Source: a virus (taxonomy: Duplodnaviria > Heunggongvirae > Uroviricota > Caudoviricetes). Taken from it: 64,000 bases of DNA. Positions 12,359-63,748 of this stretch are shown piece by piece. A program made the translations under genes and the position numbers. A model generated the notes under the pieces. It ran no database searches. It was given only the letters and a program-made list of their open reading frames with translations, and was not told the origin of the DNA. The stretch lies in the IMG/VR virus record IMGVR_UViG_3300031993_006620, one strand, 5' to 3'. Numbering within the stretch: position 1 is the first letter of the stretch; every line of letters begins with the position of its first letter.

Positions 12359-12410
12359 TGGTTTCCTCTCGGGTTGTGTCCTGTCGATATGCCCGCCGGG
12401 GAGCCCCGGC

Positions 12411-12448
12411 ACAAAAAGAAGCGCCGCCGAGGTTCGCTCGGCGACGCC
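12411..12448 (-). terminator. rho-independent terminator after gene 12469-13161
   Basis: Minus-strand read GGCGTCGCCGAG-CGAAC-CTCGGCGGCGC followed by TTCTTTTTGT. Confidence 0.5.
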
Positions 12449-12468
12449 GGTGTGTTATGCAGAATTTG

Positions 12469-13161
12469 CTAGTTGGCGCCGCGCACCCAGTCGATGTCCT
12501 TCGCCGTCATGAGCGTAGGGTCCTTGCAGCCCGTCATCCCCTGGGTCTTGAGGTTGCACTCGTCGGGGTCGTAGTCGACCTCGCCCGTGGCCGCCGTGCC
12601 AACGCCGACCTGCTGGCCGGGGTTCTCGCGGGTGGCGTCGTCGAACGTCTGCCCTTCGGGCATACGGAACACCTTGCCCGTGACCGTGGAATAGTAGGTG
12701 CGCCTGTCAGGAGATACGTACCATCCCACCTTGGCGGCGGGGGCCTTCGCGATGTCGGAGAGCGCCACGTGGTTGAGCGAGTCGCTGTAAAGTCCCGGAC
12801 GGGATTCCGCGTCGACGTATGTCCACCCCTTCGACGCGAGTTCGTCTCCGTAGAAGGCGTAGTTCTGCGCCTTGCGGGTTGTCAGGTCCTCGTTGAGGTC
12901 CTTCTGCGCGTCTGCCTTGACCTCGGCGGCGGTCTCCTTGGCGGAGTCGAGAGCCTTGTCGACCGGGTTGCCCGCGACGTGGTTCAGGCCGAGAGCGCCC
13001 ATTGCGCCGATGGCGCCGATGCCGAGCGCCCTGCCGATCTTGCCTTCGAGCGCGACCTTGCGCTCGCAGGCCTCGTAGAGCTTCCCGACGGATTCGGCTA
13101 TGCCCTTCATCTTCGGGTTCTCCTTGACCTTCTCGAGGTTGTCCAGAAATATTTGGTTCAT
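12469..13161 (-). CDS. hypothetical protein (230 aa)
   Basis: Long ORF; start MNQIFLD. Confidence 0.6.
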   Translation of the reverse strand: MNQIFLDNLEKVKENPKMKGIAESVGKLYEACERKVALEGKIGRALGIGAIGAMGALGLNHVAGNPVDKALDSAKETAAEVKADAQKDLNEDLTTRKAQNYAFYGDELASKGWTYVDAESRPGLYSDSLNHVALSDIAKAPAAKVGWYVSPDRRTYYSTVTGKVFRMPEGQTFDDATRENPGQQVGVGTAATGEVDYDPDECNLKTQGMTGCKDPTLMTAKDIDWVRGAN

Positions 13162-13191
13162 CGTGCAGCCTGTGTTACATCTGTCCGCAGT

Positions 13192-13353
13192 TTATACGGT
13201 GAGGTAGCGCAGTACGGCCGCGAAGATGATACCGAGGACAAGCGCGGGCACCCAGTCCCTCGACCTCTTCGGGGAATCCTGAAGAGGCGTCCGGGCGGTT
13301 TCCGTGGACGGGAGGATGCGCGGTCCGGACCAGATGTCGTCGGCGTTCCGCAT
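13192..13353 (-). CDS. small tail-anchored membrane protein (53 aa)
   Basis: ATG lies 3 nt after the upstream stop. C-terminal hydrophobic helix WVPALVLGIIFAAVL. Shorter than 60 aa, so not in the ORF track. Confidence 0.3.
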   Translation of the reverse strand: MRNADDIWSGPRILPSTETARTPLQDSPKRSRDWVPALVLGIIFAAVLRYLTV

Positions 13354-13356
13354 CGG

Positions 13357-13638
13357 CTACTTGGCCGTCCTGAAGGTGAGCCAGGAGTTCCAGCGCGGGA
13401 TGCGGGTGGACTTGCCGGTCACGTTGTCGGTACGGGTGTCGATCTGGAGGATGGCGGCATCCTTGCCGGTCTCGTCGACAATCGTGGCGGACTCGATGAG
13501 GCCGAACTTCTTCTCGCCGACACGCGCCTTCAGGGCGTCCTGCAGCTTCAGGCCTGCCTGGAACGGGGTGTTGGTTTCGGTCTCGCCGATGACGATTTCG
13601 GGGAGGCCTTCGAGCTTGAGCTTGCAAGTGTATTTCAT
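13357..13638 (-). CDS. hypothetical protein (93 aa)
   Basis: AAGGAAATCCACAA RBS; ATGA overlap with the upstream gene. Confidence 0.55.
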   Translation of the reverse strand: MKYTCKLKLEGLPEIVIGETETNTPFQAGLKLQDALKARVGEKKFGLIESATIVDETGKDAAILQIDTRTDNVTGKSTRIPRWNSWLTFRTAK

Positions 13639-13967
13639 TTGTGGATTTCCTTGAGTTTGTATGTTTTTGTACCGTCGTCGGTAACCTTCTCGACGATGGC
13701 GAACACCAGCGGACGGGGCCAGTAGTCCCCGAGCGTGTAACCGTCCTGCGTGATTAGCTCGGCGTGGACGGCCAGCTCGTGGAATTTCCCCGGAAGGGCG
13801 CGGACGATGGCCATGGCGTCCTCGATCAGGTCGGGTATCTCCTTCCTAGTCGAGGCAATCAGGACTCGTTCGCGCTCCGGCCAGTTGTTCAGGTGGCACA
13901 CGCCCCAACCGTCGCAGGCCGCGACGTAGCGTCTACTGTTGCTGAGTTCCACTCGTAACGATATCAT
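13635..13967 (-). CDS. hypothetical protein (110 aa)
   Basis: AAGGAGG RBS before MISLR. Confidence 0.55.
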   Translation of the reverse strand: MISLRVELSNSRRYVAACDGWGVCHLNNWPERERVLIASTRKEIPDLIEDAMAIVRALPGKFHELAVHAELITQDGYTLGDYWPRPLVFAIVEKVTDDGTKTYKLKEIHK

Positions 13968-14000
13968 GGTGGCCTCCTTGGTAAGGGCGTGGGTTGATGG

Positions 14001-14408
14001 TTAGTTTCCGTCGACGGCCTCGGCGATGTGCTCCTGCTGGTACTTCTCGAACGCGAAGGCGGCGAGGGGCAGGCCGTAGTCCTGCGAGACACGGGCCGAG
14101 ATGTCGGCCATCTGCGTGTCGGTGAGGGTGTGGTTGCCGTTCGCCTCGAAGCATCCACGCACCTGGCACACGATGCTGTTGACGATGTCGGCGCCGATAA
14201 TTTCGCCGATGATGACCGGACGGAAGTTTCCCTCCTCGGGATGCTCGTCGGCCACTCGGCTGAACTCTTCCATGAAGTCCCTGGCGCAGTCCTCGCACCT
14301 CGGGATGACCTTCACGAAGTCGTTGGCCACGTTGTTGCGGTCGACCTTGTGGACGGCGCTGGAATACACTTCCCAGTTTTCCTTGGTAGATGCGATAGTA
14401 ATGGACAT
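14001..14408 (-). CDS. hypothetical protein (135 aa)
   Basis: Motif copy plus AAGGAG RBS upstream. Confidence 0.6.
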   Translation of the reverse strand: MSITIASTKENWEVYSSAVHKVDRNNVANDFVKVIPRCEDCARDFMEEFSRVADEHPEEGNFRPVIIGEIIGADIVNSIVCQVRGCFEANGNHTLTDTQMADISARVSQDYGLPLAAFAFEKYQQEHIAEAVDGN

Positions 14409-14475
14409 TGTAAATCTCCTTGATTTGCGTTATTTTCGCCTAACTCCATGTATGGGGCGGGGGAGCCCCGGTCGG

Positions 14476-14967
14476 TCACTTGCGCTTCGGCTTCTTGGGG
14501 ATGAAGCGGGACAACAGCGCATCCACCTTCTTCGCGCACCTTTTGGCCAGCCTGCGAGCTTCCTTTTCGGAAATGATCTTGTACGAGGTCTCGTCGTCCG
14601 GGTCGACGGTGAGCGTGACGTCTTGGAAACGGATGTCTTCGGGGACGGGTGCCGCGAAGCCGTGAATCCTGAGCAGGGCGCCGTCGAGCTTCAGTTCGAC
14701 TCTGCCGGTGCCTGCGTCAATGGAGTTGACGTACTTGACCTTGGCGAGACGGAATCCGACGTGTTCATCGGTGTGATCGTATGCGGAACCGAGGAGAATG
14801 AACTTGCCCGAAAACTTCTTGTTGAGATCGGCCTTGCTTTCGGCCAGTTCCGCTGTACGGGCGTCTTCCAGCTCCTCGCGGAGCTTGGCGATTTCGGCCT
14901 TGATTTCAGTAGAGCTGCGACGCTTCTGCTGTGCTTCAGTTGCTCGTTTCGTGGGTCTCTTTGACAT
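14476..14967 (-). CDS. hypothetical protein (163 aa), lysine-rich C-terminus
   Basis: Start MSKRPTK with an AGAGGACACT RBS; ORF-track N-terminus trimmed. Confidence 0.55.
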   Translation of the reverse strand: MSKRPTKRATEAQQKRRSSTEIKAEIAKLREELEDARTAELAESKADLNKKFSGKFILLGSAYDHTDEHVGFRLAKVKYVNSIDAGTGRVELKLDGALLRIHGFAAPVPEDIRFQDVTLTVDPDDETSYKIISEKEARRLAKRCAKKVDALLSRFIPKKPKRK

Positions 14968-14975
14968 AGTGTCCT

Positions 14976-15203
14976 CTAGATTGATGTTGTTTCGTACTGG
15001 GCGAGCTTCTCCGCCCGTCGTACGTCGGCCCGGAAGTTGAGCAGTGCCCGCTTGGGGTCCGAACTCGAACCGGCCACGACCACTACCGCGTTGCTCTTCA
15101 GAAGACACATCTTGACGTGCTTGGAGCCTTCCTTGAGCGCCCATCGGCCGCTCGCCAGCATAGCCTTGACTATCGGGAGCATATTCTTGTCGATCTTCTT
15201 CAT
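14976..15203 (-). CDS. hypothetical protein (75 aa)
   Basis: Hairpin CCGGGGCTCCGTGGAGG lies directly before the ATG. Confidence 0.45.
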   Translation of the reverse strand: MKKIDKNMLPIVKAMLASGRWALKEGSKHVKMCLLKSNAVVVVAGSSSDPKRALLNFRADVRRAEKLAQYETTSI

Positions 15204-15224
15204 GTTACCTCCACGGAGCCCCGG

Positions 15225-15791
15225 CTATCCAGCCTTGGCGTCCTTCTTGACGTCGCTCCACTGGATGCGCCACGCCTTGTCTGGCTTGTCGTTATACGTG
15301 TAGGTGCTCAGGTCGACGGACATGGTGTACCCGCAACTCTCGAGAGCCTTGTAGATGTCTTCTTCGAGGTCCTTGAAAAAGAGTCCGAATTTCGTTGCGT
15401 GTTCACAATACCTCAGCACATAGTTAGTGTAGTAATGTCCGCTCGTCTTTGCCAGTTCGATCGCGTCGTTCCGTATATCACGGACGAACTCCATAACTGC
15501 GCGGTCGTGGTACTTCTCGATGTGCCGCCTGGTGGCTTCCTTGGTCTCTTTCGCGAGATTGGAGAAGTCGGATAGCGTTATGGAAGTGCGGTAGCAGTTG
15601 ACCGCGCTGGACACGTAGCCGATGACGAATCCGACGGCGAACAGGACGGGCGCGATGAAACGGGAAACGCCGTCCGTGTCGAGATAGAGAGCGACCATCG
15701 AGAACGGGCCGACAATCGACCATGCACTGCAGAAGGCGAACAGGATGTTGGCCGGACGGAGCAGGGCGGGTTTCAGCTTCTTACTTATCAT
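15225..15791 (-). CDS. membrane protein (188 aa)
   Basis: Two N-terminal TM helices. Confidence 0.55.
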   Translation of the reverse strand: MISKKLKPALLRPANILFAFCSAWSIVGPFSMVALYLDTDGVSRFIAPVLFAVGFVIGYVSSAVNCYRTSITLSDFSNLAKETKEATRRHIEKYHDRAVMEFVRDIRNDAIELAKTSGHYYTNYVLRYCEHATKFGLFFKDLEEDIYKALESCGYTMSVDLSTYTYNDKPDKAWRIQWSDVKKDAKAG

Positions 15792-16380
15792 AGGTATTCT
15801 CCTTTGCGGGCCAGCTCAACTGAAATTTTGTCAATTTGGCGAACACGGTGTCATATATTTCCTGGGTCAGGCCAGCTGCCCCGTACTGCTTCTCGACGAC
15901 GCTGTTCACCAGTGACCTTTCGGGCAGGTTCTCTTCGACGATGTATCCGTCCGATTGGAGCATCGCCTTGATTTCGGGGAGCAGGTCCTCGAGATGGAAC
16001 TGATCCATCGAGCAGGTTTCAATGATTTCGTACGGGGATACCAACGCAGTGAACTGATTCCTTTTCGAGTAGTTGGCGTCGATGTACCTGATGATTTGGT
16101 CGGCGCATGTCCTGGCGATGGGCGCCTTGGCTGACTGCGCCTCGGTCGCGAGCCGTCGAGACTTGTCCGCAGGGCTGAGTTTCAGATCGGTCTCGTCGTC
16201 TCGGCCGCTATCGTCCGCATCCTGCGGCACTGATCTGGTGCAGTGGAGCGACATGGCGCAGACGAGGAAGACCACCAGACTGACGACGCCGGGAGTGTAG
16301 GGGTGGTTATCGCCGAGACCGAGCAGGTACAGGACGATAAGGGTGAGCAGTGCGATGAAAAATGAAATTAGGTATTTCAT
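15781..16380 (-). CDS. membrane protein (199 aa)
   Basis: Start MKYLISFF via ATGA overlap with the upstream stop; TM helices present. Confidence 0.5.
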   Translation of the reverse strand: MKYLISFFIALLTLIVLYLLGLGDNHPYTPGVVSLVVFLVCAMSLHCTRSVPQDADDSGRDDETDLKLSPADKSRRLATEAQSAKAPIARTCADQIIRYIDANYSKRNQFTALVSPYEIIETCSMDQFHLEDLLPEIKAMLQSDGYIVEENLPERSLVNSVVEKQYGAAGLTQEIYDTVFAKLTKFQLSWPAKENTYDK

Positions 16381-17048
16381 GTGTTCGAGCTTCTCCTTTT
16401 TGCTTGATTCCATAATGCTTTTGTGATGTAAGTAACGTTGCCGTTAATTTCGACTGACACCGTATTATCGTCCGATACGACTATATTATCGGCGTTGGTT
16501 ATGTTGATGTATGTCAAATCGGTATTTACATTGCCGATTTTGACAAACACCGCGCTCCCGATGCAAATCACGTCGTCCGGATTGCCGGAGTCGACACGGA
16601 TGTAATCAGGCGCCGGTCCAGCGGCCTTTTCATTGGTGTTCTTGATGGGGGGCATCGATTCGACAATATCCTTGAGTTGCTCGTCGGTCATGCCAAGCCA
16701 GCTCTCCGGGATGTAGATGCGGGTCGGCTGCCCGTTCTCCGCATCGCGGCAGTTCGCGGGGGTGACGGGTGCGCCTTCCAGGTAACGGTTGGCCTTGACG
16801 GGGTTGAACGTCTCGACTTGTGCGATAAGCTGTCCCTGCTCGCCCTGCAGGATGCGAGTAATCTTGTGGGCTGCGTGTACCGGCACGCCGACAACTACTC
16901 CGCCAACGAGCTTGTTGAACTGGCGCCCGTGCTGTTTGAAAAAGTCGCTGATGTTCCAAATTCGGGAACACAGGAGGCTGTAGAACCTGAAATGGCCTTG
17001 CACTTGCTGGTGGCCGATCAAATCGGTCTTCTTGTTTTCTTGTGTCAT
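16377..17048 (-). CDS. hypothetical protein (223 aa)
   Basis: First gene downstream of the consensus promoter at 17065-17093. Confidence 0.6.
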   Translation of the reverse strand: MTQENKKTDLIGHQQVQGHFRFYSLLCSRIWNISDFFKQHGRQFNKLVGGVVVGVPVHAAHKITRILQGEQGQLIAQVETFNPVKANRYLEGAPVTPANCRDAENGQPTRIYIPESWLGMTDEQLKDIVESMPPIKNTNEKAAGPAPDYIRVDSGNPDDVICIGSAVFVKIGNVNTDLTYINITNADNIVVSDDNTVSVEINGNVTYITKALWNQAKRRSSNT

Positions 17049-17064
17049 GATAGTAGTCCTTTTT

Positions 17065-17093
17065 GGTTGGAATATAAATTATTTATCCTGAGT
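17065..17093 (-). promoter_or_regulatory. consensus sigma70-type promoter TTGACA-N17-TATATT
   Basis: Reverse complement gives TTGACA actcaggataaataatt TATATT. AT-rich intergenic region lacking the GC motif. Confidence 0.5.
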
Positions 17094-17135
17094 TGTCAAT
17101 ACCTTTTCGCAATCGGGAAATAATTTCTGGCGCAA

Positions 17136-17585
17136 CTAATTGTATTGTAGAATCTCAGCTGCCATCTGCGCGGCCTCGTTGGCTTTGCAACGCTTCCTGT
17201 CCTCGGCCTCCCACCGTTCGCGTTCGCGCCGTATTTCAGCTCTCAGGTCGGAGGCGACCTTGTCCAGCTGCTCGTCGGTCATCGAGAAGTATTCCAGATT
17301 GATATAGTAGGTGTAGCTCTCCCATCCGTCAGCGTGAACAACCAGGTAGTTCTGGCCGTCGGCTCCCTTCGCCACGTCGCCAATGTCGGTGACAACTTCG
17401 CACTCCACATCCGGCACTCCGACTATTTCGTGCTTATCCAGTCTCTCGCCTGACTCGGTGACGAAACGCGTCCCGTCGAAACAACCGCGCAACTTTTTCG
17501 AAAGCCTGCTGATCGCCTCGCGGATCCGCTTGCCGGTCACGATATAGTTGTCGATTACATTGGGCAATATGATGTTCTGTTCCAT
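17136..17585 (-). CDS. hypothetical protein (149 aa)
   Basis: Motif copy upstream. Confidence 0.6.
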   Translation of the reverse strand: MEQNIILPNVIDNYIVTGKRIREAISRLSKKLRGCFDGTRFVTESGERLDKHEIVGVPDVECEVVTDIGDVAKGADGQNYLVVHADGWESYTYYINLEYFSMTDEQLDKVASDLRAEIRRERERWEAEDRKRCKANEAAQMAAEILQYN

Positions 17586-17653
17586 GTTATCTCCTTCTTG
17601 CGTTTACCCCATAAAGTGGAAAGGGAGCCCCGGCAGGGACTCCCTCGGATGGA

Positions 17654-18487
17654 TTACTTTGCCTTCGGCTTGCGACCCCTCTTCCGTTCGGGCTTGGCGG
17701 GGTTCGCCTTGCTGGCCTTCCTCGCCTCCGCCTTTTCCCACTTGACAAGCAGGGCCTCCTTGTCCTCGAGGGACAGGGCTTCCCACTTGGCGTCGGCATC
17801 CGCCCTGCGGGAACGCTCGGCCTCGTACTTTGTAAAGGCGTCACGCTGGAACTGGACGAGCGAGTCGACCAAGGTGGACTTTGTCTCCAGGTTAGCCAGC
17901 CCGTCCCTTTCGTGACGAGCCGCGAGCTTCTTGAGCTCGTTGGCGCCCTCGGTCCATTCGTCGAACGCGTACTTGATTCCCTCGTACGGGTCCCAGAAGA
18001 TCTTCGCGTTGAAGATGACGGGGATGTTCGGGCTGATCGCCTCGGCGATGACGTCCTTGTCGTTGGGGAGAGGGACGTCCATAATCGTGCAAGTCGCGCC
18101 GTTCGACGTGCCGATGCGGTTCAGACTGGCATTGAGGCTCACCGTGCCGTCGTCATTGACGGGAATCCAATAGACGTACGGTGCGCTTAACGGGATAGGC
18201 TTCTTGTTGAGGGACGGGGACATCACGGCAAGGACGCACGCTCTCCCATCCGGCTTCCGTTCCATCACGTGACCCTGAACGCCGATGATACCGTCTCTGT
18301 ACAGGGCGTCGCCTGCGCGACATTCGACGATTTCCAGGTTGGACTCCACCAACTTGAAGCCGTTGCTATTGCCGAGAATCCCGTAGTTTAAGTCGACGCC
18401 GGTGTTTAAACGATTTCCGCCGGGGTTGACGTTTGTCAGGACGGGGAAAAGGTTCGTGGACGACTTGATTCTTTGGATATTGCTCAT
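17654..18487 (-). CDS. hypothetical protein (277 aa), Lys/Arg-rich C-terminal tail
   Basis: Motif copy upstream. Confidence 0.6.
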   Translation of the reverse strand: MSNIQRIKSSTNLFPVLTNVNPGGNRLNTGVDLNYGILGNSNGFKLVESNLEIVECRAGDALYRDGIIGVQGHVMERKPDGRACVLAVMSPSLNKKPIPLSAPYVYWIPVNDDGTVSLNASLNRIGTSNGATCTIMDVPLPNDKDVIAEAISPNIPVIFNAKIFWDPYEGIKYAFDEWTEGANELKKLAARHERDGLANLETKSTLVDSLVQFQRDAFTKYEAERSRRADADAKWEALSLEDKEALLVKWEKAEARKASKANPAKPERKRGRKPKAK

Positions 18488-18556
18488 TGTGTTCCTCTTG
18501 GTTGACTGTTGAACGCGGTCGTCCGGGCGATACGGGGCCGGGGGAGCCCCGGATGC

Positions 18557-19453
18557 CTAGATGAATACACGGACGATGTCCTTGAACCGGTCGGGGATTG
18601 CCTTGCGCACCGCCTTGACGATGTGTTCCCTGCTGTACTTCATGGAGAAGTGGTTCAGGACGATGCACTCGCACTTCACGTCGTCGCCGAGCTGGGTGAG
18701 CGCGTACTCGATGTCGGACAGGTGGGTGTGACCCTTCTTCAGGGCCATGTCCCTGTCCTCCCAGTCGACGAACGTGCATTCGGTGACGAGCACCCTGGAC
18801 TTGAACGCTTCGGGCCTCATCAGGAGCGTCGAGCCGATGCAGTCGCCCATGAACGTGATGAGCGGCGAACGCACCGTGTTGGTGATGTCGACATTCTGCC
18901 GCTTCAGCTCGACGATCTCCTGAGTGGACATTCCGACGAACTCGTCCTTGAGCTTCTTCTTCTCGAGGCTCACCGTGTAGCCGAACGCAGGCACGTAGTG
19001 CTTGACGGGGAACGCCTCGACCACGATGTCGTGCCTGTGCGGGAGCCGGAACGGTTCACCGCTCTTCACGGGGACGAAAACCGGGGGAACGTACTTGCTC
19101 GGGGACACGCCCTCGAACATAGCCTCGGCCTTGGCCATCGCCAGCGCGTTGCCGACAATATCCTCGGACATGTAGTAGGTCGCGTCCTTTCCCATACCCG
19201 TCATCTTCCTGAGGTTGTCGTGACGCATGAGGCAACGCGTATGGTCGCCGTGAGCGTGGGTCAGGAGGACGTGGTTGATGGGGAGGGATCCGATCGGGCA
19301 TTCGCCCATGTCGACCGCGATGTCGAGTTCGGGAACCCGCATGTGGGTAGCGAGACCGGATATAGAGATGCCGGTAAGCGTGCCGACGGGGATGGGCATT
19401 GAGACCGTCCGGATGTAGTCGGTAAGGGAAGCGTCCCTTTTCTTGTTTGCCAT
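18557..19453 (-). CDS. RNase Z / ElaC-like metallo-beta-lactamase-fold ribonuclease (298 aa)
   Basis: HxHxDH motif (LLTHAHGDH) plus C-terminal HFSxKY (VLNHFSMKYS), typical of tRNase Z. Confidence 0.7.
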   Translation of the reverse strand: MANKKRDASLTDYIRTVSMPIPVGTLTGISISGLATHMRVPELDIAVDMGECPIGSLPINHVLLTHAHGDHTRCLMRHDNLRKMTGMGKDATYYMSEDIVGNALAMAKAEAMFEGVSPSKYVPPVFVPVKSGEPFRLPHRHDIVVEAFPVKHYVPAFGYTVSLEKKKLKDEFVGMSTQEIVELKRQNVDITNTVRSPLITFMGDCIGSTLLMRPEAFKSRVLVTECTFVDWEDRDMALKKGHTHLSDIEYALTQLGDDVKCECIVLNHFSMKYSREHIVKAVRKAIPDRFKDIVRVFI

Positions 19454-19521
19454 TGTCTACCTCCTTGTTGGTCGACTTGTTGATTGTTACGGGGAGGAGC
19501 CCCGGTGTGTTTCATTCCATT

Positions 19522-19935: not shown

Positions 19936-19949
19936 AGTTGATGATCCTT

Positions 19950-56654: not shown

Positions 56655-56704
56655 TGTTAACTCCTTGTTGGTATAGTGGTTATGGCAAACCAAGGGAAAC
56701 CCGG

Positions 56705-57124: not shown

Positions 57125-57188
57125 TCTTTAGTCTCCTTTGCGGTTGGTATAGTGGTTATAGGCATCCGGGGGAGCCCCGGTACCGTTG

Positions 57189-57461
57189 CTACAGGGTTTC
57201 GAGAAATTCGTCGAGGTACTCGGCGTAACCCTTTTTACCGGGCACCACGGCCTGTTCGGGCAACGTGCGGCACCCGCAGAAGTAGAAAGTGCGCCTGCCG
57301 AGCTTGTATTTGCGGGCCACGACCATCTGGTCCTTTTCGGGGGTGCGTTCCTCGGCGACGAACACCAGCTTCTTGTCGTGGGTACTGTTGTACTGGTCGA
57401 CCTGCTTGGTGATGCGGGCGACCCTTTTGTCAATTTCCTTATCTGACATTTTGTTTGCCAT
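57189..57461 (-). CDS. hypothetical protein (90 aa)
   Basis: Start MANKMSDK after AAGGAG and a motif copy. Confidence 0.5.
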   Translation of the reverse strand: MANKMSDKEIDKRVARITKQVDQYNSTHDKKLVFVAEERTPEKDQMVVARKYKLGRRTFYFCGCRTLPEQAVVPGKKGYAEYLDEFLETL

Positions 57462-57516
57462 GTCTGATCTCCTTGATTGGTACAGGATGGATGGGGCGCC
57501 GGAGGAGCCCCGGTCA

Positions 57517-57927
57517 TCATCGGCCAGTCGGCCTTCGCGGTTCGAGAGCTTCACGGCCAGCTCGGTTGAAGTCCAAGCAGATACTAGACACCATGTACAG
57601 CGGGGTCCTAGTAATCCTTCCGTCCGGCTCGCGCTCCGGTGGAAGGAGCTCACGGGTCGTGCTTATGTTGATATCGACGGCGTGCTTCCATCCAGAACCG
57701 TCGTTCACGACAACGACGCTCTGAAACGGGAACATGGGCGATCCGTTTATCTTGTACCCATAGCTCGGCATGAAGTGGGCCGGATAGGCGACCACTTCAC
57801 ACTTGGACTGGCGGTTGTACCACGCCGTACACACCTCCTGGATTCTCTTGTCCATTTCTTCGCCGGTCAGCTTTAAGGGATTCTTCGCGTCGGTGGCAAT
57901 AAGTTTTGCCTTCAATTCGTCTTTCAT
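57517..57927 (-). CDS. hypothetical protein (136 aa)
   Basis: Start MKDELKAK after a motif copy. Confidence 0.5.
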   Translation of the reverse strand: MKDELKAKLIATDAKNPLKLTGEEMDKRIQEVCTAWYNRQSKCEVVAYPAHFMPSYGYKINGSPMFPFQSVVVVNDGSGWKHAVDINISTTRELLPPEREPDGRITRTPLYMVSSICLDFNRAGREALEPRRPTGR

Positions 57928-57988
57928 GTTCGAACTCCTTTGGATGGTACAGAAGGAATGGGGCCCCAGAGGAGCCCCGGTCATCGGA

Positions 57989-58477
57989 CTAGACGTGATC
58001 CGCGTGGATAACTTTGAAACCGCGCCGGAGCATGTCGAGGATCGTATTGTAGCGGGCGCATTCGGAGCTTTGGGGGTCGCATCCGTGGACGGCTTCCGTG
58101 TAGAACTTGATGGCCGCCTCCGCGTTGTCGTAGTACTTCCCAAATCCACGGGTGATCACGGTGACCCGGTCCTTCTTCTTGGGCTTGCCGGTCGCCCCCG
58201 TCTTCACGAGCACGTACCCTGCGGGCAGCTTGACCTCGCGGACCTTGAAGCGGTGCGCCTGTCCGAGGATGGAGCAGCTCACTCTCCGGTCGTCACGGTC
58301 GACCTTGATATCGAACTTGCATCGGCTCGACCGCCCGTACTCCTGGGCTGCTACGTTGGCGCTGGCCAGCGCGAGCTGCTCGGTCGTGCAAGCCGTCCCG
58401 GCGATATCCGGGCTTTCGCTCAGGTCAGCCCCGTCGTCCCATTCGACGACGACGAAAAGTTTTTCAGATTTTGCCAT
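57989..58477 (-). CDS. hypothetical protein (162 aa)
   Basis: Motif copy upstream. Confidence 0.55.
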   Translation of the reverse strand: MAKSEKLFVVVEWDDGADLSESPDIAGTACTTEQLALASANVAAQEYGRSSRCKFDIKVDRDDRRVSCSILGQAHRFKVREVKLPAGYVLVKTGATGKPKKKDRVTVITRGFGKYYDNAEAAIKFYTEAVHGCDPQSSECARYNTILDMLRRGFKVIHADHV

Positions 58478-58534
58478 GTGTTCTCCTTTGGTTGGTACAG
58501 AAAAAATGGGGGTTCCGAGGAGCCCCGGCCTGTA

Positions 58535-58960
58535 CTAGAACGTGGTCTCGGACACTACCGCCCGTTTCTTCATGCCTGCGTACTGGATGGTCAGGTTGTC
58601 GCGCACCTTCTCGGACATGGTGACGACGCCCGGATGCTCGGGGTCCTGCACGAGGTACACCTTCAGGTCGACGTTCTGCGTGTCAAGAGCCGTCCTGTAC
58701 TCGCCCCTGCTCGTCTTCAGGTAGAAGTCGGTGTGGTTGGCGTGGCGGATGGCCTTGCGCACGGCGGCCTCGTACGTGTCCTTGTCGTTGTACGGGGTCC
58801 CGTCGATGGACGCCTCGACGAACTTCTCCAGCGTCGCGTCCCCCTCTCCGAGGTGACCGCTGGCCAGAACCGCGCACGCGTTGCGGGCGTCGCGCCCCTT
58901 GGTGCGGACTACGCACTCGAGCTTCCCGTTCTTGTTTCCGATTGCCGTGTAGAATTTCAT
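58535..58960 (-). CDS. hypothetical protein (141 aa)
   Basis: Motif copy upstream. Confidence 0.55.
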   Translation of the reverse strand: MKFYTAIGNKNGKLECVVRTKGRDARNACAVLASGHLGEGDATLEKFVEASIDGTPYNDKDTYEAAVRKAIRHANHTDFYLKTSRGEYRTALDTQNVDLKVYLVQDPEHPGVVTMSEKVRDNLTIQYAGMKKRAVVSETTF

Positions 58961-59023
58961 TCCGTATCTCCTTTGGTTGGTATAGAAGAAATGGGCTCCC
59001 GGAGGAGCCCCGGCGCGTCGCGG

Positions 59024-59785
59024 CTATTTCTTCTTCGCCTTATGGATCGATACCACGTGCTCAAGGAGCTCAATGGCCGTCTTCTGGCCCAGCTGGAAAA
59101 ACCTGTGCTCTTCGAAGCCTATGGTGAACCGGATGGCGTCGCGGTTCCTGCGGCAGAGGCTGAGCAACGCCTTTGCCCTCTCCAGCGTCATGCCGTAGGA
59201 CATCGGCATATAGGATGCGCCTGCCTGCACCGCGTCGCGTCGTATGCTGGAAACAAATTTTGTATCCGCGTCCACGAAGTCGGTCAGCTTGGCCAGCGTG
59301 GAACGGGTTATGCCGGTCTTGTTCACGAAGACGACGGACCTGGCCTGCCCGTGTACAAAATCTTGCTCGTACTTGGTAAGACGGGGGAAATCGTAGTACA
59401 GGGTGTTCTCGTAGCGCAGCCACACGAACTGCCCTTCGTTGAGCGGCTTGATCTTCTTGTTAGGCGTCTTCTGTTTCAGCCGCTCAGTCGAGACCTCTAT
59501 GTTACTGTCGAGGCTCTTGACGGGGTTGATACACTCCTTGACTTCGTCCTCGGGGACAATGAACACCGCCTTGACGAAACCCTCCTCGCCGTCGTGGTCG
59601 CCGCGGTCATTGACGACCATATCGAACAGGACGGATTGGCCGTTGTACTTGTGGCGGAGATTGTTCTGGATCTCGTGGATTCGGTCGTATATCCGGTTGG
59701 ACAGATGTTCAAACCAGTCCGAGTAGTAGCCATTGAGGGTGAATCGCCTGTACGTGATCTCGACCATCTGAATAAGTCGTTTCAT
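59024..59785 (-). CDS. hypothetical protein (253 aa)
   Basis: Motif copy upstream. Confidence 0.55.
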   Translation of the reverse strand: MKRLIQMVEITYRRFTLNGYYSDWFEHLSNRIYDRIHEIQNNLRHKYNGQSVLFDMVVNDRGDHDGEEGFVKAVFIVPEDEVKECINPVKSLDSNIEVSTERLKQKTPNKKIKPLNEGQFVWLRYENTLYYDFPRLTKYEQDFVHGQARSVVFVNKTGITRSTLAKLTDFVDADTKFVSSIRRDAVQAGASYMPMSYGMTLERAKALLSLCRRNRDAIRFTIGFEEHRFFQLGQKTAIELLEHVVSIHKAKKK

Positions 59786-59837
59786 TTTAGCCTCCGTTGG
59801 TTGGTACAGGAAAAATGGGCTCCCGGAGGAGCCCCGG

Positions 59838-60134
59838 TCAGAACTGGAACTTCTTGGGCTTGCGCCTGCGGTTTCCGATCTCTGCGACGAAAATTGTCCG
59901 GCCGGCCAGTTTCCTCGGCAGTCGCTCGTTCATATCCTCGTAGAACTGAGAATCGCTGCGCCCGAAGATGCTGGCGACTTGGAACGCCCCGCTCCCGTAG
60001 TCCACGACGTAGGAGCAGTCCTCGGGCCGGTTCGATCGATCGCGCTCGGCGCAGAAGAAGCTGGCGATTGCCGACACGGCGGCGTGTCGCGCCGAGGATA
60101 GTGTGGTGGTACTGCCCTTGAAGTAGTCTTTCAT
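59838..60134 (-). CDS. hypothetical protein (98 aa)
   Basis: Start MKDYFKG after an AAAGGTGG RBS. Confidence 0.5.
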   Translation of the reverse strand: MKDYFKGSTTTLSSARHAAVSAIASFFCAERDRSNRPEDCSYVVDYGSGAFQVASIFGRSDSQFYEDMNERLPRKLAGRTIFVAEIGNRRRKPKKFQF

Positions 60135-60379
60135 TTCGACACCACCTTTCCCGCCTCGCTGAGGGTCTTTCCGCCGGCCGCACGGGCCTCGTCGGTCTTC
60201 GCCACGAGCTTGCGGGCGCTCGCCTCGGCGTACTCCACCACAGCGTCGACGGCCATAGTGGCCACGTCGGACGCCATGGACTTTCCCGCGTCCTTCACCG
60301 TCTTCTGTGTGCTCGGCGTGGACAGGAAAAACAGGATAGCGAAGATGACCACGATCACCGCGCATAAGAATCTGAACAT
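60131..60379 (-). CDS. small membrane protein (82 aa)
   Basis: N-terminal TM helix; motif copy upstream; ATGA coupling. Confidence 0.5.
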   Translation of the reverse strand: MFRFLCAVIVVIFAILFFLSTPSTQKTVKDAGKSMASDVATMAVDAVVEYAEASARKLVAKTDEARAAGGKTLSEAGKVVSK

Positions 60380-60642
60380 TTTGTGCCTCCTTGGTTGGTA
60401 CAGGACGGATGGGACTCCGGAGGAGCCCCGGCCGGCTTACGGGATCCGCCTGCTTTCAGGCGGTCGAAAATGGCTTTCCTCTCGGCGAGCACCTGGGCCT
60501 CGGTCTTCTCCGAGGGTACTATCTCGTACTCGTTGTTGAGCAGCTCGTAGTTGCACTCGGCGGCCTCCTCGAAAGAGAGGAAATCGGCCATCCCGAACAG
60601 GTCCGTGTAGGTCTTCTCGCCCTTCTTCAGAACGTACGGCAT
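60355..60642 (-). CDS. hypothetical protein (95 aa)
   Basis: Start MPYVLKK. The C-terminal about 30 aa read through the motif, so the tail is uncertain. Confidence 0.4.
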   Translation of the reverse strand: MPYVLKKGEKTYTDLFGMADFLSFEEAAECNYELLNNEYEIVPSEKTEAQVLAERKAIFDRLKAGGSRKPAGAPPESHPSCTNQGGTKCSDSYAR

Positions 60643-60662
60643 GTTGAACCCCTGTTGATAAA

Positions 60663-60713
60663 TTGTAAATAAAAAGTTTACAAAATATGGGCAGTCCGTT
60701 GACGTCCTGCCCA
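60663..60713 (-). promoter_or_regulatory. transcription-unit boundary: terminator-like hairpin (TGGGCAG..CTGCCCA plus T-run) followed by AT-rich palindrome TTGTAAA-N7-TTTACAA
   Basis: One of the few AT-rich intergenic regions lacking the GC motif. A sigma70-like TTGTAA-N17-TATCAA is possible. Confidence 0.3.
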
Positions 60714-60735
60714 CATCCTGTGGAAACGCTGTCGA

Positions 60736-61152
60736 CTAGTTGCGGCGGGCCATCACGTCGAACAGGGACTTGACGGACTCCTCGAGCCGGTCGTAGCTGC
60801 ACCAGTTGTTGCTACCGCCCCTGCAGTCGTTCACGTCGTCGGCCGTGCGGTACAGCACGCGACCGTACCAGTCGTTCCAGCGCACGTCGTCGATCCTCGC
60901 GTAGATGAAGCGGCCGTCCTTCTTGAACATGCAGCTGAACTCGAAGGTGTTGTTGCTGAAGCTGGCGAGCTTCGCGCCGATGTTCTTGGCGAGTTTCCTC
61001 ATCTCCCGTCTGGCGATGGGGATGAAGTAACCCTTGGCGAACCGCTGGTAGCCCACCTCCCCCTGGAACTTCTCGGGGACGTAGTTGTTCTCGAAGTCGT
61101 AGTTCCTGAAAGCGGCTACGCTCTTCTCCTTGGGGATTTCGCAGGTCTTCAT
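60736..61152 (-). CDS. hypothetical protein (138 aa)
   Basis: Start MKTCEIPK after a motif copy. Confidence 0.55.
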   Translation of the reverse strand: MKTCEIPKEKSVAAFRNYDFENNYVPEKFQGEVGYQRFAKGYFIPIARREMRKLAKNIGAKLASFSNNTFEFSCMFKKDGRFIYARIDDVRWNDWYGRVLYRTADDVNDCRGGSNNWCSYDRLEESVKSLFDVMARRN

Positions 61153-61216
61153 GTTGCCTCCTTGGTTGGTACAGGGAGTATGGGACCCCGGAGGAACCCC
61201 GGAGCCCAGGCGGGAT

Positions 61217-61819
61217 CTACGGGGCCGAGGTGATGATCGTCTGGTCCGGCACGCCGGTCTTGTCGTGTTGCCTGTCGATGAGAAGCTCAATCCCGTCCAG
61301 GTTCAGCTTCTCCTTGCGGCAGCTGTTGACGAAGTCGTCGACGGAGCCGCCCTTTCTGAGCACCCAGTTTTCCTTCTTTTTCTTGAAGTCCGCCTCGATA
61401 TTGTCGATTTCGGCCTTGCGCCCCGCGTCGAGCTTGTCGTACTCGTCGGCACGGCGTTTCGCCATCTTCTCGGCCTCGGCCTGCACCTCGGCATACTCGG
61501 CGGAGCGCAGCCCGTAGTTCGACAGGGTGTCCCGCAGGCGGTCGTGGAAGACCATGTCCTCGGCGTTCAGCTTGCGGTCCAGCTCGGCTCTCTTCTCCGC
61601 CCAGCGGCGCTCTGCCTCGGCGATGGCCTCCTTTTCCATCTTCTTGACCTCGTCATACTTCTTGCGGAACACCGCGCAGCCGACGTGGCTTTCGAGGAAC
61701 TTGACGAGCGTGTATTTGATGGCGTCCCACGCCTGGTGGGCGAAGGCATACGCCTCGGCACGGAGGACGGCGTCTGCCCAGTCGGTCGGGTAGGTCTGGC
61801 GGATTATTAATTGGAACAT
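61217..61819 (-). CDS. hypothetical charged/coiled-coil protein (200 aa)
   Basis: Motif copy upstream. Confidence 0.55.
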   Translation of the reverse strand: MFQLIIRQTYPTDWADAVLRAEAYAFAHQAWDAIKYTLVKFLESHVGCAVFRKKYDEVKKMEKEAIAEAERRWAEKRAELDRKLNAEDMVFHDRLRDTLSNYGLRSAEYAEVQAEAEKMAKRRADEYDKLDAGRKAEIDNIEADFKKKKENWVLRKGGSVDDFVNSCRKEKLNLDGIELLIDRQHDKTGVPDQTIITSAP

Positions 61820-61877
61820 TTTTTAACTCCTTGTGGTTGGTACAGGGAGGATGGGCCCCTCGAGGAGGCCCGGACGA

Positions 61878-62210
61878 TTACTGGGCGTAGGCGACGGCGA
61901 ACTGCTTGCCGATCTTGGCGATGTCGCCGACCTTGCACCAGATGTCCGCGTGGCCGTCCGTGGGAAGGAGCTGCACGGAGCCGGTGCGCACCCTTTTCGT
62001 GCGGTTGCCGACCATGTCGACCCAGTTGACGGTGTAGGCGATGTTTTGCCCCGCCACGCGGAGCCTGACCCTGACCTTCTCGACCTTCAGGCCCGCCTTC
62101 TTTTTCTGCACGTCGAACGTGCGCTCGTAAGTGTTCTTCTTTCCGGCGACAGCGGCGAAGTTTTCGATCTTCAGCACCGAGTCGAGCGTTTCCTTGAAAG
62201 ATTGGCCCAT
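61878..62210 (-). CDS. hypothetical protein (110 aa)
   Basis: GGGAGGTAGCCC RBS. A degenerate motif (TTGGTTGGTTTCAGGATGCGGG with no GC hairpin) lies upstream. Confidence 0.55.
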   Translation of the reverse strand: MGQSFKETLDSVLKIENFAAVAGKKNTYERTFDVQKKKAGLKVEKVRVRLRVAGQNIAYTVNWVDMVGNRTKRVRTGSVQLLPTDGHADIWCKVGDIAKIGKQFAVAYAQ

Positions 62211-62282
62211 GGGCTACCTCCCTGATATGCGTTTCTTGGTTGGTTTCAGGATGCGGGTGGAATTCTTGGACAAGCTGGCCTC

Positions 62283-62564
62283 CTAGGCGAACGTGGCTGT
62301 GGCGACCTCGGCCGCCGTGAGGGTGAACATGGTGTCGTCGTCCCCGCTGCTGTTGCGGAAGGTGACGGAGCCGTCTTCGTTCACGGACTCGACGAAGCAC
62401 GTCTCGCCGTCCATGCAGGCCACTCCGAGCTTGCTGTGGAGGTCGAAGTAGTTCCCCTTGTGGGTAATCTCGTGACCCAGTGCCGTCTTCGCGGGCCTGT
62501 CGCTGATGCTGTTGTACAAAGCTTGTACGCTGATGGTTGCCGGGTCGCCTGTCTTTAGGGGCAT
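62283..62564 (-). CDS. hypothetical protein (93 aa)
   Basis: Start MPLKTGD after an AAAGGA RBS; expanded motif copy upstream. Confidence 0.5.
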   Translation of the reverse strand: MPLKTGDPATISVQALYNSISDRPAKTALGHEITHKGNYFDLHSKLGVACMDGETCFVESVNEDGSVTFRNSSGDDDTMFTLTAAEVATATFA

Positions 62565-62664
62565 TTTAAATCCTTTGTCGTGGTTGGTTATACTGTTAAA
62601 TGTAAGTTTTTTAGGTCGCCCTGTCAAGGGCACCCGATTGATCCCGAGCCGGGGGAGCCCCGGC

Positions 62665-63234
62665 TCATTCGTTGGAGTTGCAGGCGTCGAGCCCGTGGTT
62701 CTTGAAGAATTCCTTCCAGTTTTCCTCGGAAGCGCCGGTTTCGGGGACCTGCTTGAGATATTCGACCATGAGCTCCTTTATCTCGTCGACGGATAGAAGT
62801 TTCTTCGTGCTCGCGGTCCAGAAAAAGTCGTCGACGGAGTCCATGTGGAAGAACGTGCCGGCGTACCTGGGTTCGGTCCAGACCTTTCCGAAGAAACGCC
62901 CGACGGGTCTGTCGTAGAAGTCAATCCTAGCGTCCTCGCACAGGGGGACGTCCACCGACGACATCATTGTGACGCTTTCATTCGATTCCTTCACGTAGAC
63001 GTCGGCGTGGACATATTCGACCTGGAGGTGATCGATCAGGTCGATAGCGGTGTCGTATTCGTCCTTCAATCGACATTGTACCATCCTGAACTTTCCGCAC
63101 TCGATGGCGTTGACGCCGCCGCGAATCTCCGTGGACATCTTGGTCATGATTTCGTTGTCCTGCTGCTTCGTGAAGTTGGCAACTTCGATGAGGAATGTCC
63201 CCTCGCCGCTGTCGCCGGTAATTAGCTTAATCAT
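62665..63234 (-). CDS. hypothetical protein (189 aa)
   Basis: Motif copy upstream. Confidence 0.55.
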   Translation of the reverse strand: MIKLITGDSGEGTFLIEVANFTKQQDNEIMTKMSTEIRGGVNAIECGKFRMVQCRLKDEYDTAIDLIDHLQVEYVHADVYVKESNESVTMMSSVDVPLCEDARIDFYDRPVGRFFGKVWTEPRYAGTFFHMDSVDDFFWTASTKKLLSVDEIKELMVEYLKQVPETGASEENWKEFFKNHGLDACNSNE

Positions 63235-63295
63235 TGGAAATTCTCCTGTTGTGGTTGGCTTCGTCTACCCGGATGCATGGTCGAGGGAGCCCCGG

Positions 63296-63685
63296 TTACA
63301 GGCAGGACTCGAGGATGAGCGACTTGCAGTGGTAATCCTTGTCGGCGAAATATCCGGCGTTGTAGGATAGGTTGCGGTTGGTGTAGTATATGAGCAGGCA
63401 CACGTGGTTCTTGTTGTCGGTGCCGTACAGCGGTTTCAGCTTCTCGAGGAACTGGTCGACGTCCTCCGGCTTCGTGACCTCGGCGTTCGCCATTCCTTCG
63501 TAGCCGTTGACGACGCTGATGGCGACCGGTTCGTCCTTCTCCTTGCACTCTCTGAATACCTTCTTCATGCGGGCACCCAGGTCGTCGAACGCCTCGTCGA
63601 ACGTAGATGAACGGTTGGTGAGACGTTCCCAGCGCTTCCCGTCGATAAATTCAGACAGAGTTACCAGTGATGTCCTGAATGCCAT
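63296..63685 (-). CDS. hypothetical protein (129 aa)
   Basis: Motif copy upstream. Confidence 0.55.
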   Translation of the reverse strand: MAFRTSLVTLSEFIDGKRWERLTNRSSTFDEAFDDLGARMKKVFRECKEKDEPVAISVVNGYEGMANAEVTKPEDVDQFLEKLKPLYGTDNKNHVCLLIYYTNRNLSYNAGYFADKDYHCKSLILESCL

Positions 63686-63748
63686 ATTGCCTCCTTTGTT
63701 GATATAGAAAAAATAGGGCTCCGGAGGAGCCCCGGCCGGCCAGCAGGC

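Follow-up and report, generated by a model that had tools for sequence, protein, structure and literature searches.

Some T4-type bacteriophages carry a repeated genetic element known as PeSL (promoter-early stem-loop), in which a G/C-rich stem-loop, shown to terminate transcription, is combined with a strong early promoter and a Shine-Dalgarno (SD) sequence; it has been described for RB49/phi1, T4/PST, and KVP40/nt-1 (Arbiol et al. 2010, PMC2839356; Comeau et al. 2014, PMC4122927). PeSLs are repeated between ORFans in hyperplastic regions, where they are points of exchange and can form mini-circles. The stem-loop lies upstream of the promoter, which has near-consensus sigma70 -35 and -10 hexamers with an N17 spacer and an AT-rich upstream region (PMC2839356, PMC4122927). 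In the PmSL variant of nt-1 the promoter consists of a Mot box and TATTAT (PMC4122927). Here we analyze a stretch of 64,000 nucleotides, hereafter the window, from the Caudoviricetes virus record IMGVR_UViG_3300031993_006620, in which dozens of small minus-strand genes are each headed by a composite element made up of a conserved 10-nt core, a GC-rich hairpin, further short boxes, and an SD sequence. With moderate confidence, the sequence suggests that this element combines a terminator or attenuator with a promoter and a ribosome site, in analogy to the PeSL and PmSL of T4-type phages. A first-pass annotation of the same DNA had recognized no matching system, and these cassettes are the closest precedent (PMC2839356, PMC4122927).

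The core of the element, read in gene orientation, is CCGGGGCTCC. Exact matches to this 10-mer were found 43 times on the minus strand of the window and once on the plus strand. When one mismatch was allowed, 63 matches were obtained on both strands (59 on the minus strand), compared with 7.4 ± 2.7 in dinucleotide shuffles. A composite definition, consisting of a core with at most two mismatches, an A-T step at +22/23, and an SD and start codon within 120 nt, returned 53 non-redundant minus-strand copies and a single plus-strand copy, and the earlier figure of about 55 co-oriented copies was accurate. There are in addition two truncated copies, 36053 and 15224, in which the core abuts the SD (copies are named by their higher coordinate; Table 1). 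The copies previously placed between 12396 and 63735 are present, but the array overruns both ends of that range. The outermost copies in the window are those at 63735 and 11203, the latter preceding an FtsK-like gene, and the array goes on past base 64000. The overlapping ENA contig L017 (window 56816-64000) contains 22 core matches with at most one mismatch in 13 kb, approximately nine of which are upstream of the window end. The density amounts to at least 62 successive cassettes across at least 58 kb. Neither the core scan nor the composite scan found any copy in the plus-strand block at 1-8.2 kb, which had already been noted to be free of the element. No match to deposited phages was obtained by megablast of 16 kb of the window or by blastn of two consensus elements, a pattern scan of IMG/VR for the element gave single chance matches only, and the sole match of the window in Rfam was tmRNA.

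The anatomy of the element was determined from a logo anchored solely on the 43 exact cores, with the core as positions 1-10. The order in each copy is the stop codon of the upstream gene, CCGGGGCTCC, approximately 10 nt that usually pair with the 10-mer, A-T, TGTACC, a CA-rich leader, AAGGAG, and ATG. The upstream stop codon is mostly 0-20 nt ahead of the core; a few copies lie inside the 3' end of an upstream open reading frame (ORF), for example 50621, 49549, 46543, and 32772, in agreement with the first-pass annotation that some are translated as C-terminal tails. Positions 11-14 read YCnG and positions 15-21 are variable. They are followed by A at +22 in 42 of the 43 copies and by T at +23 in 41, exactly 11 nt past the 10-mer, and no feature of the element is more informative than this near-invariance at an exact spacing from the core with variable sequence in between. 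Enrichment is also seen at T30-R31-T32-A33-C34-C35-A36, which reads TGTACCA, and a weak ACT at positions -15 to -13 is the remnant of a GACTGG box. The leader is 47% A and 39% C. From core to start codon the median distance is 53 nt (interquartile range 51-56, full range 45-99). The probability that the SD is unpaired was calculated to be 0.56 without the upstream part of the element and 0.43 with it. A translational switch had been proposed in which CUCC of the hairpin pairs with the SD; such pairing is not predicted, since minimum-free-energy folds place just 7 of the 248 SD nucleotides in pairs with the core or loop.

Homologues of the GP88 protein that are 53-62% identical led to three further lineages with the same type of array. 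The architecture and frame are common to the window and to contigs L116, L106, and L103, and each lineage has its own core: CCGGGGCTCC in the window, CCGGG(C/T)(T/C)TCC in L116, CGGG(G/A)CTGCC in L106, and CGGG(A/T)CTGCC in L103. L106 and L103 were profiled in full, with numbering from the first G of GGG, and were found to share an identical spacing of GACTGG, 11 nt, CG-GGGNCTGCC, 9 nt, TATT, 5 nt, and TAYRYAACC. In these logos GACTGG(C) occupies positions -18 to -12, the core with its 5' flank -4 to 9, and TATT 19-22, followed by T28-A29-Y30-R31-Y32-A33-A34-C35-C36 and then AACCAAGGAG. A22/T23 of the window aligns with A20/T21 of L106 and L103, and TGTACCA of the window with TATRYAA. A more distant fifth lineage, L118 (ENA ERZ27276727 k141_7966), has other repeated intergenic motifs, GCCCATCCCTTCCCGTAGGGGA...CGCGATATGCAAC and TTTTTCTATATT. 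Composite signals that differ from lineage to lineage may be a general feature of this phage group.

The hairpin was found to be under selection in its own right, independently of the core sequence. When the core plus 11 nt was folded, 40 of 50 copies reached -8 kcal/mol or lower, and the mean was -10.8, compared with -7.3 when only the 3' arm was shuffled (Wilcoxon p = 1.6e-10); the 3' arm adapts to a fixed 5' sequence. The hairpin is formed in several registers, which in the window include GGGGCTCC-TCC-GGAGCCCC, CCGGGG-CTC-CCCCGG, and CCGGGGC-TCCCC-GCCCCGG. In the relatives the core may be the 5' arm (GGGCTGC-ctc-GCAGCCC), may lie at the tip while variable flanks pair (e.g., GATCGGCGGGG-CTG-CCTCGCCGATC), or may be the 3' arm followed by a T-run (GGCAGCCC-ttc-GGGGCTGCC-TTTTATTTTT), which is the textbook form of an intrinsic terminator. 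The hairpin ends 1-2 nt before the A-T step, or at the core in the third register. For the tip register, an ungapped alignment of 59 copies from the relatives gave 74 double-sided changes in the outer stem versus 48 ± 5.7 after shuffling, with none of 500 shuffles reaching 74; the covariation score was 0.261 versus 0.201, and six slid registers were all lower. The register with the core as the 5' arm gave no excess over shuffles in the relatives, because that arm is invariant. Approximately 10 of the 50 window copies have little or no hairpin. Since the registers vary and these copies nevertheless retain the core, pairing does not explain why the core is invariant. Three registers around a position-fixed core argue that the core is read as sequence and that the hairpin is selected separately. 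The earlier description of a conserved stem-loop is therefore correct in that the hairpin is real, but the hairpin is neither universal nor of a single form. The statement that it lacks a U-tract holds for most window copies and fails for six copies at 44-64 kb, which pass a simple hairpin-plus-T-run scan. T-runs are more common in L106 and L103, and the conclusion that the element is not a classical terminator was incomplete, as some copies in the window and many in the relatives consist of a hairpin and a T-run.

A transcription start was predicted by taking the conserved (T)AT(T) as the beginning of a -10-like hexamer and the start as the purine located 6 nt past the hexamer. Position +1 is then A or G in 38 of 43 window copies and in 32 of 33 copies from L106, and position -1 is a pyrimidine in 35 of 43 and 31 of 33, respectively (T in 30 of the latter). 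Numbered in this way, the core spans -32 to -23 (window) or -34 to -22 (L106), and the GACTGG box lies at approximately -48 to -43. TATACA/TGTACC was rejected as the -10 element because the start would fall within the SD where this sequence abuts AAGGAG. A sigma54 promoter (TGGCAC-N5-TTGC, with GG at -24 and GC at -12) was also rejected: the window has no TGGC, and in the relatives, where TGGC is part of the GACTGGC box, the GC partner varies and is TC in L103. A promoter of the extracytoplasmic function (ECF) sigma type was rejected on reading its spacing, and a hairpin promoter of the N4 type was rejected because three registers and hairpin-less copies surround a fixed core, with no positioned hairpin of fixed size.

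Promoters of the ordinary kind are easily seen in the same genome. TTGACA-N17-TATATT was found at six positions of the window, and near-perfect sites include those at 2526 and 4108 on the plus strand and at 11798, 17099, and 39456 on the minus strand. The first of the minus-strand sites (11798-11770) is a perfect match and is directly upstream of the tmRNA gene, in place of the element, and the genes at 17048 and 39389 likewise have a canonical promoter and no element. Within the array, a 10-of-12 match to TTGACA-N17 with the -10 hexamer TACATT is found at 62627 (-), and L106 carries similar canonical sites. The host polymerase presumably reads these sigma70-type promoters. In T4 middle promoters a MotA box centered near -30 takes the place of the -35 element. 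The occurrence of canonical promoters elsewhere in the genome argues that the element is a second promoter class, and since its core occupies the position of the MotA box, we infer that this class would be read by the host polymerase together with a phage factor. By analogy, the two-class arrangement would parallel the early and middle promoters of T4.

The position of terminators points in the same direction. Copy 12409 follows a clear terminator, GCGCCGAG..CTCGGCGGCGC-TTCTTTTT, and copy 36053 follows a hairpin and T-run; in L106 and L103 many copies are downstream of a separate canonical terminator that is itself upstream of the GACTGG box. Unless these independent terminators leak heavily, the genes behind them need their own promoter. 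Of the two terminators previously reported to precede copies, the one at 12.4 kb is clear and the one at 51.0 kb is less clean (51.1 kb). Directly upstream of copy 51039, at 51037-51093, a T-rich 20-nt sequence (TAAGATTTTTTGAACGNCCG on the minus strand) is repeated in tandem, with 2.8 copies.

The mechanism that we propose is as follows. Within a hyperplastic region, each copy would insulate a single small accessory gene, or a short operon, and drive its expression. Transcription is predicted to start at the purine in TGT-A-CC, which lies 32 nt past the beginning of the core; for copy 55592 this is window position 55560. Upstream of the start, the element would consist of a weak ACTGG box at approximately -47 to -43, which is strong in the relatives, the core CCGGGGCTCC at -32 to -23, and a minimal -10-like element with invariant A(-11) and T(-10), read as TATT in the relatives, followed by a Y(-1)/R(+1) start. 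The transcript would begin with an unstructured leader of 86% A+C, ending in AAGGAG and the start codon. The GC-rich hairpin, which overlaps the core and spacer, would, once present in the transcript of the upstream gene, terminate or attenuate transcription and stabilize the 3' end of that RNA, and termination would work best where a T-run follows. The element would be read by the host RNA polymerase with a phage-encoded factor, either an activator or a sigma factor. We advance more tentatively, as a proposal that may well prove wrong, that the core (CCGGGGCTCC, or CGGGNCTGCC in the relatives) and A(-11)T(-10) define an undescribed promoter class in which a phage-encoded activator or sigma factor replaces -35 recognition. 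It would be an analogue of the MotA/AsiA sigma appropriation of T4 without sequence relation to it, and would drive at least 62 insulated cassettes, including a CRISPR-Cas locus.

A promoter, possibly one served by an element-encoded factor, had been suggested in the first-pass annotation. The promoter half of that suggestion gains from the rigid spacing of boxes over 35-55 bp regardless of the hairpin, the Y-R step, the terminators upstream, and the separate set of sigma70-type promoters; as for the factor, no activator or sigma gene was found in the window. This last result weighs against a promoter, and several others do so as well. The T at -7 is not conserved (10 of 43 window copies and 16 of 33 in L106), which makes the -10-like element a poor one by the standards of sigma70. 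A -35 hexamer is missing, and neither a TTGACA-like hexamer nor TAnnnT appears in the logos of the window, L106, or L103. The core is centered at approximately -28, where it would be read by no standard sigma region 4. Boxes of fixed spacing could equally be read on the RNA by a protein. Most window copies are without a T-run, and termination may therefore be weak. Promoter activity, terminator activity, and the start site are all deduced from sequence, and the T4-like assignment of the window genome is weak, resting on a GP88 homologue in another contig, L100. A 241-aa protein of the sigma70 family (regions 2 and 4; phrog_351) is encoded near the array in L018 (19491-20216, minus strand) and L019 (12302-13027, minus strand); it was rejected as the recognizing factor since it is absent from the window and its extensions.

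Comparison of closely related contigs showed that most breakpoints between strains fall inside or at the edge of elements, which the first-pass annotation had not noted. A 107-aa gene is present in L106 and absent from L107, where the single remaining element is a hybrid whose left half resembles the upstream L106 element and whose right half resembles the downstream one, with the crossover in the core. The same pattern was found for a 160-aa gene that is present in L105 and absent from L103, with the crossover at the GACTGG box. The 136-aa cassette at 56196-56666 of the window is missing from L112 (JAEEGH010001140.1), which has a hybrid of the 56704 and 56223 elements, and single hybrid elements thus mark three cassette indels (L107, L103, and L112). 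L112 also differs in the replacement of the four-gene block at 53200-54788, with homology ending at the first base of the 53199 core and just past the 54837 SD, and in the insertion of a cassette of approximately 960 nt at the 49549 element. L114 has other sequence in place of the 212-aa gene at 42812-43469; one breakpoint coincides with the 42811 core, and the other is close to the start codon belonging to copy 43514. At 19484-21363 (-) a TnpB/Cas12f-like gene (19997-21229) and a 137-aa gene, with a GC content of approximately 48%, replace a 187-aa gene of the 97%-identical contig L018, and this segment ends within the 19505 element. As the crossover positions differ from case to case, they indicate homologous exchange between repeats rather than site-specific cutting. 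The repeated elements probably provide patches of homology by which strains gain, lose, and swap cassettes.

These exchanges would also be expected of dedicated, integron-like recombination sites, at which cassettes are captured and expression signals are secondary; the foreign cassettes of low GC content that sit between elements (CRISPR-Cas and TnpB) are consistent with this idea. Yet the crossovers vary among the core, the GACTGG box, TATACCAAC, and a point after the SD, which fits homologous exchange, and recombination has no need of the SD-proximal and start-site modules. Since, moreover, the logos contain no attC-type RYYYAAC/GTTRRRY boxes and no integrase is present among the scanned window proteins, we regard capture sites of this kind as very unlikely. 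It is more improbable still, to the point that we give it hardly any credence, that the element is a functionless repeat spread by duplication, such as a repetitive extragenic palindrome (REP) or miniature inverted-repeat transposable element (MITE). High copy number and an imperfect palindrome are typical of such repeats, but they leave unexplained a strand bias of 53 to 1, the fixed position relative to stop and start codons, boxes that are invariant while the intervening sequence varies, and an architecture kept across lineages in which the GP88-like protein is only 53-62% identical.

A function at the level of RNA requires closer attention. Long polycistronic RNAs could be made from few promoters, with the hairpin and boxes constituting an intercistronic site of processing or stabilization, recognized for example by an RNase or by an RNA-binding protein of the phage. 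After cleavage, the upstream message would carry a 3' hairpin and the downstream one would begin with a CA-rich leader favoring translation. The early RNAs of T7 and T4 are processed at intergenic hairpins. Strict co-orientation with the genes, selection on the hairpin, the 86% A+C leader with an SD that is more accessible without the upstream part (0.56 vs 0.43), and the small number of canonical promoters visible in the array would all be accounted for. We nevertheless consider such a site unlikely. The core is invariant while the hairpin shifts through three registers and is weak or missing in approximately 10 of 50 copies, the A-T step and the GACTGG box are outside any helix and still exactly spaced, and copies right behind good terminators would receive little read-through RNA. 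The core might instead be an operator, that is, the site of a phage repressor or silencer present at every gene boundary to switch the accessory region, and no part of a promoter. Sites of 10-13 bp that are asymmetric, in one orientation, in short intergenic gaps, and dozens per genome would fit the Cluster A stoperators (PMC3203893), and a core that differs by lineage is expected of co-evolution with a phage protein. A normal promoter should then stand beside the core, but none is visible, though canonical promoters are easy to see elsewhere, and the exact spacing from core to A-T to start step points to a single recognition complex. With the weaker observation that no repressor or integrase was seen in the part of the genome covered, an operator has a rather small chance of being correct, and we continue to favor a composite of terminator or attenuator, promoter, and ribosome site.

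The genes of the window include those for FtsK/SpoIIIE-like, TnpB/Cas12f-like, and GP88-family proteins, a C5 DNA methylase, tmRNA, and a Cas3 and Cas1 locus. No Pfam match was found for 46 of 50 small proteins of the array (ORFans). The CRISPR-Cas locus (24430-31554, minus strand) appears to be complete and lies within the array, bounded by the elements at 31554 and 24356; its GC content is approximately 49%, versus approximately 58% in the adjoining DNA. The phage-borne tmRNA gene at 11344-11701 (-) scored 163.9 bits in Rfam and encodes the tag peptide AAPVAMAA. In L112 (JAEEGH010001140.1), an insertion of approximately 1046 nt at 52905-52911 interrupts the C5 methylase gene (52218-53120) and may be an intron, a homing element, or a mobile gene. 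A 1582-bp tandem duplication at approximately 1310-4475 (+), with genes for 234 and 129 aa and a promoter, is absent from an otherwise identical ENA contig (L001, L015) and could be a strain difference or an assembly artifact. Approximately 350 bp at 39900-40250 (-) are without an obvious gene and contain a GACTGGC box, a CCGGGACTCC hairpin with a T-run, three TTTTGACAA repeats (one inverted), more hairpins, and a clean terminator, GCGGGA-TCGAAG-TCCCGC-CTTTCTTTT; the segment may encode a small RNA, or it may have a regulatory role or serve as an origin.

Several public assemblies contain identical DNA or DNA of more than 96% identity, and contigs with the same proteins reach 475 kb. In L100, a contig of a related phage, a 64%-identical GP88 homologue is found between Portal_T4 and Gp23 capsid genes, beside an S77 prohead protease, and the L100 capsid protein is approximately 29% identical to those of T4-like phages. 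Ahead of the structural genes at 1700-17150 of L100 stands (A/G)TATAAAC, a motif similar to the T4 late promoter TATAAATA, and no enriched repeat of the element type was found in this 20-kb structural module. The replicon is probably a very large phage distantly related to T4. The FtsK-like protein is closest to those of Fibrobacter (52%) and metagenome-assembled genomes of Fibrobacteres (43%); the assignment of a Fibrobacter(es) host is weak since other phyla score nearly as well (approximately 41-44%). The repeats found in L020, a contig from the FtsK-based genome search, were rejected as elements because they are coding leucine-rich repeats.

Table 1. Element copies and CRISPR-Cas features in the window. 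AT, A-T step; dG in kcal/mol; nt to ATG, distance to the start codon.
Feature	Coordinates	Strand	Details
Array of co-oriented small gene cassettes, each headed by an element	11147..64000	-	53 composite copies; continues beyond window end
Copy	63683..63735	-	core CCGGGGCTCC; AT +22/23; 50 nt to ATG; hairpin dG -14.8; T-run tail
Copy, weak hairpin	63232..63295	-	exact core; AT +22/23; 61 nt to ATG; dG -5.4
Copy, then sigma70-type promoter	62562..62663	-	TTGACA-N17-TACATT at 62627, then TATAACCAACC and ribosome-binding site
Copy	61817..61873	-	core CCGGGCCTCC; 54 nt to ATG
Copy	61150..61202	-	core CCGGGGTTCC; 50 nt to ATG
Copy	60377..60431	-	exact core; 52 nt to ATG; dG -14.5
Copy	59783..59837	-	exact core; 52 nt to ATG; dG -16.5; T-run tail
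Copy	58958..59013	-	exact core; 53 nt to ATG; dG -16.5; T-run tail
Copy	58475..58528	-	exact core; 51 nt to ATG
Copy	57925..57980	-	exact core; 53 nt to ATG; dG -16.3
Copy	57459..57513	-	exact core; 52 nt to ATG
Copy	57122..57180	-	exact core; 56 nt to ATG
Copy, upstream breakpoint partner of one-cassette indel vs JAEEGH010001140.1	56652..56704	-	core CCGGGTTTCC; hybrid in L112
Copy, downstream breakpoint partner of 56704 indel	56167..56223	-	core CCGGGTCTCC
Copy, near-consensus	55537..55592	-	exact core; perfect 8-bp stem; 53 nt to ATG
Copy	54780..54837	-	core CCGGGCTTCC; L112 homology stops just past SD
Copy	54463..54521	-	core CCGGGCCTCC
Copy	53912..53979	-	core CCGGGTCTCC; 65 nt to ATG
Copy ahead of C5 DNA methylase gene	53118..53199	-	L112 homology boundary is first core base
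Copy ahead of GP88-like gene	52067..52123	-	
Copy downstream of T-rich 20-nt tandem repeat	50988..51039	-	
Copy within 3' end of upstream 140-aa ORF	50569..50621	-	
Copy, no hairpin	49491..49549	-	dG -3.2; ~960-nt cassette inserted here in L112
Copy	48780..48832	-	
Copy	48039..48093	-	
Copy	46489..46543	-	
Copy	45525..45581	-	
Copy	44865..44913	-	
Copy	44294..44350	-	
Copy	43462..43514	-	cassette-replacement breakpoint vs L114
Copy	42754..42811	-	L114 homology ends at first core base
Copy	42289..42348	-	
Copy	41380..41435	-	
Copy	41018..41070	-	core CCGGGCTTCC
Copy, long leader	38194..38293	-	core CCGGGGTTCC; 97 nt to ATG
Copy	36896..36953	-	
Copy	36610..36667	-	
Truncated copy	36018..36053	-	exact core, SD and ATG directly after; just past intrinsic terminator
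Copy	34615..34670	-	
Copy	33528..33575	-	
Copy	32717..32772	-	
Copy without hairpin, heads cas3 and CRISPR-Cas cassette	31493..31554	-	dG -2.6
Cas3 (HD + helicase)	29156-31495	-	
Variant copy within cas operon	29084..29154	-	core CCGGGGTTCC; AT shifted by 1
Three genes	26458-29086	-	CRISPR-Cas locus
Variant copy within cas operon	26998..27048	-	core CCGGGTTTCC
Cas1-like gene	25634-26464	-	
CRISPR array	~24430-25410	-	~17 repeats (ATACTCCCCATACGTGTGGGGATCGAAA, period ~61)
Copy directly past CRISPR array	24294..24356	-	
Copy	22873..22947	-	
Copy, no hairpin	22332..22391	-	after T-run
Copy	21707..21757	-	
Copy	19451..19505	-	right-hand breakpoint of TnpB-containing replacement vs strain L018
Copy	18485..18552	-	
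Copy	17583..17633	-	
Truncated copy	15201..15224	-	exact core, SD and ATG directly after
Copy	14406..14471	-	AT shifted by 1
Copy directly past intrinsic terminator	12356..12409	-	terminator GCGCCGAG..CTCGGCGGCGC TTCTTTTT
Copy ahead of FtsK/SpoIIIE-like gene	11147..11203	-	outside range of first-pass annotation

If the proposed function is correct, the accessory genome of very large uncultivated phages is laid out as a long series of plug-in units, each of which brings a stop signal, a start signal, and a ribosome site, and the repeats double as seams for gene exchange. The PeSL idea would then extend well past the cultured T4-type phages, to a lineage with a different recognition system. A precise and testable promoter motif would help in finding the phage factor and in predicting the timing of expression in phages known only from metagenomes, and the motif would also mark cassette boundaries, including those of a phage-borne CRISPR-Cas system.

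Several described systems share parts of this design. Rho-independent terminators likewise place a GC-rich hairpin at the 3' end of each gene, with a T-run in a minority of window copies and in many copies of the relatives, whereas most window copies are without a T-run, one arm is invariant, and extra conserved boxes follow downstream. The stoperators of Cluster A mycobacteriophages are dozens of asymmetric sites of approximately 13 bp that are co-oriented in short intergenic gaps (PMC3203893), but they are stand-alone repressor sites without fixed partner boxes, a hairpin, or a ribosome-binding module. The start-associated sequences (SAS) and extended SAS (ESAS) of Cluster K mycobacteriophages also join a conserved box to the ribosome-binding site and have an imperfect inverted repeat shortly before it; they occur at many genes in a single orientation, with a consensus that depends on the lineage (Pope et al. 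2011, PMC3203893). The 13-bp SAS motif keeps a constant distance to the start codon and pairs in part with 16S rRNA, and the function of SAS and ESAS is unknown (PMC3203893). In contrast, the invariant parts of the element are approximately 30-53 nt upstream, at a start-codon distance of 45-99 nt and with exact mutual spacing; there is no sequence similarity, and its only start-proximal part is the generic AAGGAG.

The closest likenesses are to the T4-type systems. With PmSL and the T4 middle promoters, the element shares an activator-type box near -30, a -10-like box resembling TATT(AT) (TATT in the relatives, only A-T in the window), a stem-loop and ribosome-binding site, and coexisting promoters of host consensus (PMC4122927). 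It differs from them in that the box is CCGGGGCTCC or CGGGNCTGCC and not TGCTT, the spacing from box to -10 is 9-10 bp compared with approximately 12, and the T at -7 is not conserved. The scanned window proteins, which cover part of the genome, include no MotA or AsiA homologue. With PeSL, the element shares a repeated unit of stem-loop, promoter boxes, SD, and start codon that is co-oriented with small ORFans in hyperplastic regions, lineage-specific variants, and breakpoints of indels and replacements between close strains that fall in the motifs. Unlike PeSL, it has no -35 hexamer but a GC-rich core of 10-13 bp at approximately -34 to -22 and a minimal -10; its hairpin overlaps the core and spacer instead of lying upstream of the boxes; and it is far denser (at least 62 cassettes over at least 58 kb) in a far larger genome, with contigs to 475 kb. 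The function of PeSL has been tested experimentally. In its proposed mode of working the element is like PeSL and PmSL, and it is a member of neither by sequence.

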